Below, one piece after another: positions 31,501 through 34,500 of a DNA stretch of 64,000 nucleotides. Source of the stretch: Candidatus Hydrogenedentota bacterium (lineage in GTDB: Bacteria > Hydrogenedentota > Hydrogenedentia > Hydrogenedentales > JAEUWI01); the NCBI GenBank assembly GCA_034669905.1, contig JAXMOL010000015.1:1-64000 (forward strand), written 5' to 3'. The position numbers are program-made. The stretch's first letter is position 1; each line of letters opens with the position of its first letter.

Positions 31501-34500
31501 GCTTGGTTTTCATGTAGCCATTGTCGTGCAGGTCGATAATGCCCTCGAAGACGTCCGTGTTCGGCTTGTGTCCGATGGCGGCAAAATAACCTACACACTC
31601 CACCTCACGGGTTTCGCCCGTGTTGGCATCTTTCAGCCGCACGCCGGTAACGCCATCCTGGTCGTTGCCCAGCACCTCATCCACCACGGTGTTCCATTCG
31701 ATCTGGGTTTTCTCGTGGTTAATTACCCGGTCGCCCATGATCTTGCTCGCACGGAATTTGTCGCGACGGTGCACCACGTGGACCTTGCTGGCAAACTTGG
31801 TGAGGAAGAGGGCTTCTTCCATGGCGGTATCGCCGCCACCCACCACGACCAACGGCTTATTGCGGAACCGGGGCAAAGCGCCATCGCAGGTTGCACACGC
31901 CGACACGCCGCGATTTTCAAACTTCTCTTCGGAAGGCAGACCCAGGTATTTCGCCGTGGCACCCGTGGCGATAATCACCGCCTTCGTTTCCCACATGGTG
32001 TCACCCGAATAGACCTTCAGGGGCTGACTCGAAAAGTCGACCTTGGTGACCGTCTTGTATTCGAAGCGCGTGCCGAAACGTTCGGCCTGCTTTTTGAAAT
32101 CCACCATCATCTGCGGACCATCGATACCATCGGGGTAGCCGGGGTAGTTTTCCACTTCCGTCGTGGTCATCAGCTGGCCGCCGGGAAGGATGTCTTTGCT
32201 CAATTCACCCTCGAGACAAAGCGGGTTCAAATCGGCCCGGGCTGTGTAGAGGGCCGCGGTATAGCCGGCCGGACCGGAACCGATGATAATCACGTTTTCC
32301 ATAGCTTCTTAACTCCAATAGGCTCAAAAAAGGAAGGCTTAGCGCCCTATCATAGCAAATTACCCGGTGCGGGACGTAGCCACGTTCCGAGACGACCGCT
32401 CCCCCATCACGCAGGACACCAATTTATACCATATCTAAATAACCAAATTCCATGTGCCCGACGTGCAAAGGAAATCCCGAAGAAAACTTGCACCCCGTCC
32501 CCGCCAAATACTATACTTCTCTCTCTATTCAGCATGTCGCCCATTTCATGTGCGTGACACGCCGGATAGACCTATTATGCCTGGGTAGCTCAGTCGGTTA
32601 GAGCGCTGGATTGTGGATCCAGAGGTCGACGGTTCGACCCCGTCCTCAGGTACCATTACACATTAAGCGGAAACATCGTCCTATGTCGGTGTTTCCGCTT
32701 TTTTGTGTGACCACCATCGGGGCTCGAAGACGTCCCGATTCGCCTGGAAAAGGCCCGACGCCCCCATCCATTGAGACGTCGCACACTCGGCACGACTTTG
32801 CCCAATGCCCGCCGATAGCACAGGGCCCGTTATTCCACGATTCGTGCTATCCACGGCAGACGTGTATGATAGGGAGACCTTCGAACGCGCGCTCTTACCC
32901 CATGCGGGCATCACTCCCAACCCATCCCGGAAAGGAATTCATGCACGAAAGCAACACACGACGGACGGCCGTCCGACACGATGTGACGCGGTTGAGCGAG
33001 GACGATATTCACTGGCTGAACGAGGGCAGCCACTTCCGTTTATACGACAAACTTGGCGCCCACCCCATGACCGCGTCCGATGGCACGGAGGGGGTCTACT
33101 TCGCCGTTTTTGCGCCCCATGCCCACGCGGTTTCGGTCTTCGGCAGCTTTAACGACTGGAACAAGGACGCATCCATGTTGCGCCTTCGGGATGATTCGGG
33201 CGTCTGGGAAGGCTTCGTGCCAGACACCGGGCGCGGGGCAACCTACAAGTTCCACATCTGGGGCCAACACGACGGCTTCGAAGCCGACAAGGCCGATCCC
33301 TATGGATTCCGCCACGATGGTGCCCCGTCCAACGCCTCCATCGTCTGGCCATTGGATCACGCATGGGACGATGAGGACTGGATGGCAAACCGCCAGACCC
33401 AGGCCACACAGCCAACCCCCGTGTCGATCTATGAGGTCCATCTGGGCTCGTGGATGCGCGACGAGGACAACGCGTTCCTTAACTACCGCGAGATAGCGGA
33501 TCGCCTTGCCGCCTACACGGTCGAGATGGGCTTCACCCATGTGGAAATCATGCCGGTCACTGAGCATCCTTTCTATGCGTCGTGGGGCTATCAATCCACG
33601 GGCTATTTCGCCCCCACCAGTCGATACGGAACACCCCAGGATTTCATGTACTTCGTCGACTGTATGCACCAGCATGGCATCGGCGTGATTCTGGATTGGG
33701 TCCCCGGACACTTTCCCAGCGATGCCCATGGACTCGGCTACTTCGACGGTACCCACCTCTATGAACATCCCGACCCGCGCCGGGGCATCCACCCCGAATG
33801 GCAGAGTTTCGTCTTTGACTACGAGCGGCCGGAGGTGCAGAGCCTCCTCTTCAGCAACGCGTTTTTCTGGGCCGATAAGTACCACGTGGACGGCTTCCGG
33901 GTAGACGCCGTGTCCTCCATGCTCTACTTGAATTACAGCCGGGAAGACGGCGATTGGATTCCCAATCAGTATGGTGGGCAGGAAAACCTGGAGGCCGTGG
34001 CCTTCTTCCGACGCTTCCACGCCGAACTGGCCACACGCTATCCCGATGTCCGCTCTTTCGCGGAAGAGTCCACGGCGTGGCCCATGGTTTCCCGACCGGG
34101 CTATCTGGGGGGACTGGGTTTTGATTATAAGTGGGACATGGGCTGGATGAACGACACCCTGTCCTACTTTAAGCAGGATCCCATTTACCGAAAATTCTAT
34201 CAGCAGAAACTGACTTTTCGGATGATGTATGCTTTCAGCGAAAACTATGTGCTCCCCTTGTCCCATGATGAAGTCGTTCATGGTAAGGGGTCCTTGCTCG
34301 CACGGATGCCGGGCGACTATGGTCAGAAGTTTGCCAACCTGAAAGTCTTGTTGGGTAACCAGTACCTGCAGCCCGGCAAGAAGATGCTCTTTATGGGCAG
34401 CGAGTTGGCCCAGTGGAATGAGTGGAATCACGACACCTCGCTGGATTGGAACCTGCTCGATTACCCGGCCCACGCGGGCGTCCAACAATGGGTAAAAGAC

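Follow-up and report, generated by a model that had tools for sequence, protein, structure and literature searches.

A histidine identity system without G-1 in Hydrogenedentales, probably acquired as a tRNA–synthetase pair from outside Alphaproteobacteria

The tRNA-His of this Hydrogenedentota genome (G000) and its histidyl-tRNA synthetase (HisRS), encoded on contig C14, are best explained as a G-1-independent identity system in which a cassette from a non-alphaproteobacterial, multi-phylum pool displaced the canonical pair (probability about 0.8). The G-1 residue of tRNA-His is almost universal and among the most conserved of all tRNA identity marks. The tRNA-His/HisRS pair of delta-G-1 type found in RRCH Alphaproteobacteria is reportedly treated by Wang 2007, and Ardell & Andersson 2006 are said to have argued for HisRS transfer in that system, which the literature regards as a synapomorphy with a single origin. 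Our literature search found no published G-1-less tRNA-His/HisRS system outside Alphaproteobacteria.

Within the window, the 64,000-nt stretch of DNA that was analysed, the tRNA-His(GTG) gene occupies 32579..32655 on the + strand (77 nt; ARAGORN, Rfam tRNA RF00005 at 68.4 bits, and sequence), and the RF00005 alignment gives a standard 7/5 cloverleaf. Position -1 (32578) is T, hence U and not G; the acceptor stem GCCTGGG / CTCAGGT forms G1-U72, C2-G71, and C3-G70; and the discriminator A73 is followed by a gene-encoded CCA. The D-loop, AGTCGGTTA, has 9 nt with U20a, and position 37 is G. A whole-genome ARAGORN scan, run on G000, returned this as the sole tRNA-His among 43 tRNAs in the 7.44-Mb assembly (completeness 95.7%), confirming the survey's finding of a single gene with no G-1, G1-U72, and A73. 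Judged by an encoded G-1 paired with C73, an ERPQ motif 2, and a Gly-rich pocket, G000 does not have the canonical system. The G1-U72/A73 end is also present on both tRNA-Glu and one CAT-anticodon tRNA of G000, so this end alone is not a sufficient histidine mark. An intrinsic-terminator-like hairpin (32665..32700, + strand; 14-bp stem, 8-nt loop, then a T run) starts 10 nt past the tRNA 3' end, in a consensus scan with 2 sites observed against 0.5 expected, so that the tRNA-His looks like the final gene of its transcription unit. A consensus scan of the + strand from 32200 to 32900 found no sigma-70-like promoter upstream of the gene.

The two partners lie on separate contigs in G000, whose single hisS encodes a protein of 495 aa (TIGR00442, 370 bits) with the Pfam domains tRNA-synt_His and HGTP_anticodon. 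Motif 2 has changed from the canonical ERPQKGR to DKPGPGR (R115K, Q117G, and K118P in T. thermophilus numbering), and in the motif-2 loop Gly replaces the conserved Gln (RADKPGPGRFRQF in G000, RNEKPGPGRFRQF in RRCH, RYERPQKGRYRQF in canonical enzymes), the Gly-for-Gln criterion for the tRNA-binding loop given by Amrine 2014 (Fig. S1 legend, PMC3937112). The Gly-Gly pocket for G-1, taken with the residue roles from an excerpt of Tian 2015 (PMC4357726), is acidic: in a gap-rich region of the alignment the reading here is SPE-ED / SPE-GE, against DDD-xQ for Alphaproteobacteria and (D/K)(R/K)G(G)R for both the canonical and the archaeal enzymes. Two inserts are present, one of ~12 aa in the insertion domain (GRIDDSGDPIAG) and one of ~19 aa in the anticodon-binding domain (containing DREAYREAGKTGQ); both are common to alphaproteobacterial and other G-type rows of the alignment and absent from Q-type rows, which retain the motif-2 Gln, and from canonical rows. 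Characteristic peptide insertions, one of them in the anticodon-binding domain, are a criterion given by Heinemann 2012 (PMC3245924). Motif 2, the pocket region, and both inserts are shared with seven named Rhodobacterales/Hyphomicrobiales HisRS, and in its sequence the G000 enzyme bears every mark of the G-1-independent alphaproteobacterial enzyme. Its best solved relatives are Q-type (E 3e-64 to 7e-61), and structures of the E. coli/T. thermophilus type matched it in two partial stretches only.

The order comprises 133 genomes here, and 126 of them encode a HisRS of the G000 type (51-88% identity), with no additional hisS of the canonical kind detected. A census of 117 complete tRNA-His genes, from as many of these genomes, found G1, C2-G71, and C3-G70 in every gene and C73 in none. 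Together with the HisRS marks and the tree described below, the census supports the survey's view that a G-1-less tRNA-His and a G-1-independent type of HisRS run through the order. The features are less uniform than had been proposed: position 72 is U in 113 genes and C in 4, position 73 is A in 116 and G in 1, the D-loop is 9 nt long in 108 genes and 10 nt long in the remaining 9, and two order genomes, G096 and G098, carry a G-1:C73 tRNA-His. The 9-nt D-loop with U20a had been listed as a hallmark of the system; it is present, but it also occurs in the G-1:C73 tRNA-His of G096, G098, and G002, a genome outside the order, and does not discriminate here. A looser pattern, applied to five order genomes as a weak check for a second tRNA-His, gave several chance matches in each, one per genome with a paired anticodon stem.

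Elsewhere in the phylum the system is canonical, as had been claimed. The two genomes available from outside the order, G001 and G002, have a tRNA-His (located with an anticodon-to-T-loop pattern) that reads G-1 + GTGGGCG...CGCTCAC + C73, and their HisRS are solely canonical, with YERPQAGR in motif 2 and 24-32% identity to the G000 enzyme, in pieces.

In 19 order genomes the tRNA-His sits upstream of a co-directional hisS, at a distance of 3-298 nt; linkage was taken from coordinates, and 8 of these 19 cassettes were confirmed in sequence. Their scattered distribution suggests that the cassette arrangement may be ancestral in the order. The G-1-less pair was also found in many phyla besides Hydrogenedentota and Alphaproteobacteria, so the earlier proposal that it is confined to Alphaproteobacteria and this order does not hold. 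The G-1:C73 tRNA-His of G096 and G098 forms a cassette with a Q-type HisRS, and these genomes have swapped back to G-1:C73, apparently via an actinobacterial-like hisS-tRNA cassette. By the criteria for the canonical system applied to G000 above, G096 and G098 count as having that system, as do G001 and G002. Contamination was considered as the source of this cassette and rejected, as G000 and four genomes of the genus possess counterparts of the adjoining gene at 64-82% identity. The second flanking gene is less clear, with counterparts at 42-46% that are probably paralogous.

The HisRS tree (IQ-TREE, LG+C20, 81 rows, SH-aLRT support) places 69 rows in a G-type clade (support 99) that includes the known G-1-independent enzymes and excludes the G-1-dependent ones. 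It was preferred as the basis over a FastTree run of 204 rows, which recovered the same grouping (non-Q clade, local support 89). The HisRS of the order form a clade of their own (99), separated from the rest by the deepest division within the G-type clade; the node uniting all other G-type rows has a support of just 87, which would not settle the root of the clade or, hence, the direction of transfer. Such a deep position, with just two genomes sampled outside the order, would be compatible with a G-type pair ancestral in the phylum, G001 and G002 having later acquired the canonical bacterial pair. We regard this as improbable, because the pair of G001 and G002 is the type found in most bacteria and their HisRS cluster with a gammaproteobacterial one, the G-type clade itself sits among Q-type, G-1-dependent enzymes, and cassette swaps are directly visible inside the order.

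The survey had called the G000 HisRS alphaproteobacterial in type, which the sequence marks and the G-type clade bear out; neither closest kinship nor exclusive grouping with the enzymes of Alphaproteobacteria is borne out. The closest relatives come from Acidobacteriota, Bacteroidota, Ignavibacteriota, and Planctomycetota (386-435 bits), whereas alphaproteobacterial HisRS score 265-350 bits. The latter are monophyletic (93) and stand away from the order, nested with Acidimicrobiia (98) and one Planctomycetota row (100), and the AU test rejected an exclusive clade of the order and Alphaproteobacteria (delta lnL 125.9, p-AU 0.0008). Furthermore, a tRNA directly upstream of hisS was found at 13 of 25 non-alphaproteobacterial named loci vs. 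0 of 55 Pseudomonadota loci. These results make it very unlikely that the RRCH clade of Alphaproteobacteria and the order exchanged the system directly, in either direction, a link suggested by the survey's Swiss-Prot matches, even though the motif-2 core is identical (KPGPGRFRQF) and the best named matches in a plasmid/chromid collection are all from Rhodobacterales/Hyphomicrobiales (35-41% identity over ~95% of the length). On this tree, the HisRS of the order does not stem from Alphaproteobacteria; it branches deeply in a multi-phylum clade, with the enzymes of Alphaproteobacteria nested inside it.

Another reading is that G-1 is still needed, being added by an unrecognised enzyme or kept where encoded, with a HisRS that still depends on it. 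Base -1 is U in 82 of the 117 order genes, C in 11, A in none, and G in 24, and these 24 would be compatible with an encoded G-1, albeit one unable to pair with A73. Thg1 (PF04446), which in eukaryotes adds G-1 opposite A73 (Heinemann 2012, in part; PMC3245924), gave a match in one of the 133 order genomes, G062, which belongs to the genus, and none in G000 or the other genomes. The prevalence of U at -1, the near absence of Thg1, and a HisRS in which the G-1-holding residues (Arg and Gln of motif 2, the Gly-Gly pocket) are missing leave little room for this reading, and the homologous Caulobacter HisRS is slightly inhibited by G-1 (PMC3064791). Least credible of all is convergence, with G-1 recognition lost in the order independently of the alphaproteobacterial and other G-type enzymes: certain eukaryotes did evolve a G-1-independent HisRS of separate origin (Rao and Jackman 2015; PMC4338351), but all G-type rows share the same motif-2 change and two same-site inserts of similar sequence (GRxD(D/E)SGDxIxG; a DREEW-like loop), in one clade with a support of 99.

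For the preferred reading, a G-1-independent pair from a multi-phylum pool, we propose the following mechanism. Since base -1 is unable to pair with A73, cleavage by RNase P is expected at the usual +1 position, and the mature tRNA-His would have G1 as its first base, wobble-paired to U72, and end in A73-CCA. HisRS, which appears to have lost the features holding G-1 and the 5' phosphate (motif 2 and the Gly-Gly pocket) and gained the ~12-aa and ~19-aa insertions, would select its tRNA mainly by the GUG anticodon, U72, and A73, by analogy with the Caulobacter enzyme. Identity rules here may differ from those of that model, since four order genomes have C72 despite a U72 effect of ~91-fold in Caulobacter (Yuan 2011, excerpt; PMC3064791). 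The pair would have entered the ancestor of the order from the multi-phylum cassette pool and not from Alphaproteobacteria, most likely as a two-gene cassette of tRNA-His followed by hisS, and displaced the canonical G-1:C73 tRNA and bacterial-type HisRS; the two genes would have separated later in the family of G000.

More generally, the evidence tilts slightly towards histidine identity in bacteria travelling as an orthogonal, self-sufficient cassette of two genes, whose G-1-less version spread over at least nine phyla, with RRCH as one recipient and the order having swapped both ways. A tRNA-His and hisS would enter together, compatible with the resident pair, and later take its place. The ancestor of the order would have passed in this manner from G-1:C73 to the G-1-less state, and G096 and G098 back again. 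A G-1-less order whose relatives just outside it are canonical would date a clean replacement of both partners. With linkage as a cassette, occurrence across many phyla, and a swap back within one genus, the way in which an identity rule evolves by exchange of gene pairs could be tested directly. C72 and G73, which occur as natural variants, and the many divergent enzymes could also provide material for orthogonal HisRS/tRNA pairs.

Several known systems share features with that of G000. A tRNA-His on mobile DNA (2017, PMC5389517, in excerpt) is also G-1-less with A73, but it has an 8/4 acceptor/T-stem in place of the 7/5 cloverleaf and no synthetase. The eukaryote-like route combines A73 with a Thg1 that adds G-1, and G000 lacks the Thg1. 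In the canonical system, RNase P retains the encoded G-1:C73 and HisRS is of the E. coli/T. thermophilus type (Tian 2015, in part; PMC4357726). That system, kept by G001 and G002, has the amino acid, anticodon, and class IIa fold in common with G000, which differs in lacking G-1:C73 and the G72-G73 pocket and in its R115K/Q117G/K118P changes. Q-type HisRS, which are eukaryote/archaeon-like and occur in Bacteroidota, Clostridia, Actinomycetota, Nostoc, and the human cytoplasm (PDB 6nhi, 3net, 4phc), are sister to the G-type clade and have the RFDLT/RYDLT and GRFREF motifs in common with it, but differ in the motif-2 Gln and the missing inserts.

The nearest counterpart is the delta-G-1 pair of the RRCH Alphaproteobacteria, with Caulobacter crescentus as the model (PMC3064791, excerpt; Amrine 2014, PMC3937112). 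The Caulobacter HisRS aminoacylates tRNA-His that lacks G-1, depends on the anticodon and U72, and behaves orthogonally in E. coli (Yuan 2011; PMC3064791). The RRCH tRNA-His resembles that of G000 in the lack of G-1:C73 and in G1-U72, C3-G70, A73, a 9-nt D-loop, and G37, and the RRCH HisRS in the KPGPGR motif 2, the acidic pocket, and the same two inserts, within one clade (99). The order's system, known from sequence, belongs to a different phylum, and its HisRS, 35-41% identical to the RRCH enzymes, is not a sister of the alphaproteobacterial ones. It is further set apart by RADKP in G000 in place of RNEKP, by the linkage of tRNA to hisS in 19 order genomes, which none of the Pseudomonadota loci showed, and by its natural C72 and G73 variants.

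The window contains two tRNA genes by ARAGORN, one of which is a tRNA-His(GTG) gene on the plus strand at 32579-32655, where the Rfam tRNA model also matches (68.4 bits). Its acceptor stem (GCCTGGG / CTCAGGT) forms the pairs G1-U72, C2-G71 and C3-G70, the base at -1 is T, the discriminator is A73, CCA is encoded in the gene, the D-loop (AGTCGGTTA) has 9 nt, and the base at 37 is G. The survey's finding of a tRNA-His without G-1, with G1-U72, A73 and a 9-nt D-loop, is thus borne out by the sequence, ARAGORN and Rfam, as is its claim that this is the only tRNA-His gene of the genome, one among 43 tRNAs in an assembly of 7.44 Mb (102 contigs, 95.7% complete). 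A terminator-like hairpin (32665-32700) lies 3′ of the gene. The gene upstream, on the minus strand, encodes a pyridine-nucleotide disulphide oxidoreductase, and those downstream a GlgB-like protein and an alpha-amylase; these neighbours have no relation to translation. CCA is encoded in all 43 tRNAs, and G1-U72 with A73 also occurs in both tRNA-Glu and one CAT-anticodon tRNA (window 19484-19561 and elsewhere). Unusual tRNA-Glu base pairs are mentioned for the RRCH Alphaproteobacteria, the clade with the described G-1-less pair (Amrine 2014, PMC3937112).

The genome has one hisS copy, on contig C14 (TIGR00442, 370 bits; 495-aa frame), with the Pfam domains tRNA-synt_His and HGTP_anticodon. Among solved structures it is closest to 6nhi, the Nostoc enzyme 3net and human cytoplasmic HisRS, and HisRS of the E. 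coli and T. thermophilus type match it in part only. With this HisRS as query, the same type was found in 126 of the 133 genomes of the order Hydrogenedentales (51-88% identity) and no HisRS match in five, the enzymes of G096 and G098 being only 35-36% identical. The same query, which did pick up the canonical HisRS of G001 and G002, two genomes of other classes of the phylum (24-32% identity, two pieces each), revealed no further canonical enzyme in any order genome. The phylum assignment is backed by L283, a Candidatus Hydrogenedentota locus whose HisRS is identical to that of one order genome.

According to the excerpted account of Tian et al. 2015 (PMC4357726), motif-2 residues E114-R115-P116-Q117-K118-G119-R120 and R122 in the T. 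thermophilus complex bind both the acceptor end and the phosphate of G-1, the G-1 pocket is formed by G72-G73 of the other subunit, and two aspartates fill that pocket in Caulobacter HisRS. We aligned G-type enzymes (the G-1-independent type) from this order, seven named Rhodobacterales and Hyphomicrobiales, and other phyla. All share four marks: a motif 2 reading (D/E)KP(G/D/A/E)xGR instead of ERPQxGR, acidic residues at the pocket position, an insert of ~12 aa, GRxD(D/E)SGDxIxG, in the insertion domain, and an insert of ~19 aa in the anticodon-binding domain. The pocket mark is the least secure, because its column sits in a gap-rich stretch. All four are absent from Q-type enzymes, the eukaryote/archaeon-like kind that keeps the motif-2 Gln (Bacteroidota, Clostridia, Actinomycetota, an archaeon), and from canonical enzymes (Proteus, G001, G002). 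Three related representatives with ~165-300 extra residues at one end, P0003 (796 aa), P0050 (615 aa) and P0138 (607 aa), may be fusions.

For a census of tRNA-His across 135 genomes of the phylum (133 of the order plus G001 and G002), the best match in each genome with a match was read (30 loci and 90 regions) and passed to ARAGORN. This yielded 117 complete genes, from 117 order genomes; the other 16 comprise three with a gene cut by a contig end (G009, G012, G082), G096 and G098, and 11 where the search matched nothing, or matched other tRNAs weakly. Three of these 11, G033, G084 and G121, gave no hit to a tRNA-His pattern either. G1, C2-G71 and C3-G70 are present in 117/117. Position 72 is U in 113 and C in 4, position 73 is A in 116, G in 1 and C in none, base -1 is U in 82, G in 24, C in 11 and A in none, and the D-loop has 9 nt in 108 and 10 nt in 9. 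The order-wide uniformity described by the survey therefore stands for G1 and the absence of C73, but not for the four C72/A73 genes (L075 in G026; L098-L100 in G013, G010 and G011), the one U72/G73 gene (L137 in G111), or G096 and G098, which carry canonical G-1:C73 genes. Motif 2 of the G026 and G010 HisRS shows no obvious change. Read in sequence, G001 and G002 keep the canonical tRNA-His, as had been claimed (G-1, GTGGGCG...CGCTCAC, C73, CCA).

The G-type pair is missing from G096 and G098, two species of the genus that also includes G094, G095 and G097. In its place (L178 1995-3475 in G096; L179 in G098) stands a Q-type hisS with motif 2 RPQEGR, whose product groups with an actinomycete enzyme (support 100), and ~90-110 nt downstream of it a tRNA-His with G-1, GCGGTAG...CTACCGC, C73 and CCA. 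The gene next to the G096 cassette has counterparts 82% identical in G098, in the same arrangement, 73% in G097, 65% in each of G094 and G095, and 64% in the window's genome. The contig is therefore native and not a contaminant, and the cassette is a second replacement, a swap back to a G-1:C73 pair.

By match coordinates, tRNA-His immediately precedes hisS, in the same orientation, in 19 genomes of the order, from families f3 (G009-G013, G024-G026) and f13 (G081, G082, G086, G094, G095, G099, G100, G122-G125); sequence inspection of eight of them placed the end of the tRNA 74-298 nt ahead of the last possible hisS start codon. The two genes share a contig at a distance in G092 (46 kb), G068 (204 kb) and G034 (1.26 Mb), and are on different contigs in the window's genome. 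Among the best 80 loci of a species-genome scan, tRNA-then-hisS order was found in 13 of 25 non-Pseudomonadota loci, some of the 12 unlinked ones having <250 nt of upstream sequence and so being uninformative on linkage, and in none of 55 Pseudomonadota loci. Sixteen genomes reached via loci without a linked tRNA were searched for tRNA-His; two gave no match and 14 did, four of these being alphaproteobacterial controls. U72 is present in all 14, with A73 in 13, G73 in 1 and C73 in none; in every case examined, the type of tRNA thus matches that of the HisRS. Position 1 is G in 13 and U in 1: L306, from the Planctomycetaceae genome of L221, has U1 opposite U72, A73 and no encoded CCA, and ARAGORN shifts its ends by one base.

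The survey's report that the best named HisRS matches are alphaproteobacterial held up in tblastn against plasmid and chromid records (Paracoccus, Pseudorhodobacter, Cereibacter, Ruegeria, Sinorhizobium and Methylobacterium, 35-41% identity; then Bacteroidota, 31-32%, and Proteus, 26%). A search of all representatives gave closer full-length relatives (41-46%). Taxa for these relatives came from the species-genome scan, whose listed matches included Thermoanaerobaculia, Bryobacterales, Vicinamibacteria, Planctomycetota, Bacteroidota, Ignavibacteriota, Zixibacteria, Acidimicrobiia and Krumholzibacteriota; within the best 80 loci these score 326-435 bits against the HisRS of the window's genome, mostly above the 265-350 bits of Pseudomonadota. 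A HisRS tree (IQ-TREE, LG+C20, PMSF, short search; 81 rows, 484 columns), which has no root inside the G-type clade, gave SH-aLRT support of 99 for that clade and 99 for the order's. Alphaproteobacteria are monophyletic (93) and nested with two Acidimicrobiia rows (98), then with one row from Planctomycetota and one unclassified (100). Forcing the order and Alphaproteobacteria together, a constraint set after the free tree had been seen, cost 125.9 log-likelihood units (p-AU 0.0008), rejecting the single group that the survey had implied. The HisRS of one record labelled Nitrospiraceae (L288 / L298) falls within the clade of the order, and the tRNA-His locus of its genome matches that of an order genome exactly, also in the flanks; label and placement disagree. 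L213 (labelled Chitinophagales) and L214 (Ignavibacteriota) are near-identical neighbours (end branches 0.11 and 0.13), pointing to recent inter-phylum transfer or a binning or labelling problem.

In the literature, as far as the excerpts covered go, the G-1-less system is confined to RRCH Alphaproteobacteria, most strains of SAR11 and some of the phages of these bacteria; a 2023 review of tRNA identity gives G-1 and C73 as bacterial elements and mentions that G-1 is missing in some organisms. Full-text search, which does not extend to subscription journals and supplements, yielded no description of the pair for Hydrogenedentota or another non-alphaproteobacterial phylum. The tRNA-hisS cassette and the two-way swapping go beyond this literature.

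Gene content, sequence marks and their co-distribution are direct observations; the working of the system can be proposed from them. Thg1 is absent from the window's genome, as the survey stated, and occurs in one of the 133 order genomes, G062 of the same genus (L315, G062:C399:61285-61650; 106.6 bits, 281-aa frame). RNase P would cut the tRNA-His precursor at +1, because A73 cannot form a pair with base -1; the marked predominance of U at that position is in keeping with ordinary RNase P substrates. HisRS would read the anticodon together with U72 and A73, by analogy with the Caulobacter enzyme as excerpted from Yuan 2011 (PMC3064791). Since both tRNA-Glu and a CAT-anticodon tRNA have the same G1-U72/A73 end, the acceptor end by itself is not enough to specify histidine, in keeping with a dominant role of the anticodon. 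Variants with C72 or G73 in the order point to identity rules that are not identical to those of the Caulobacter system.
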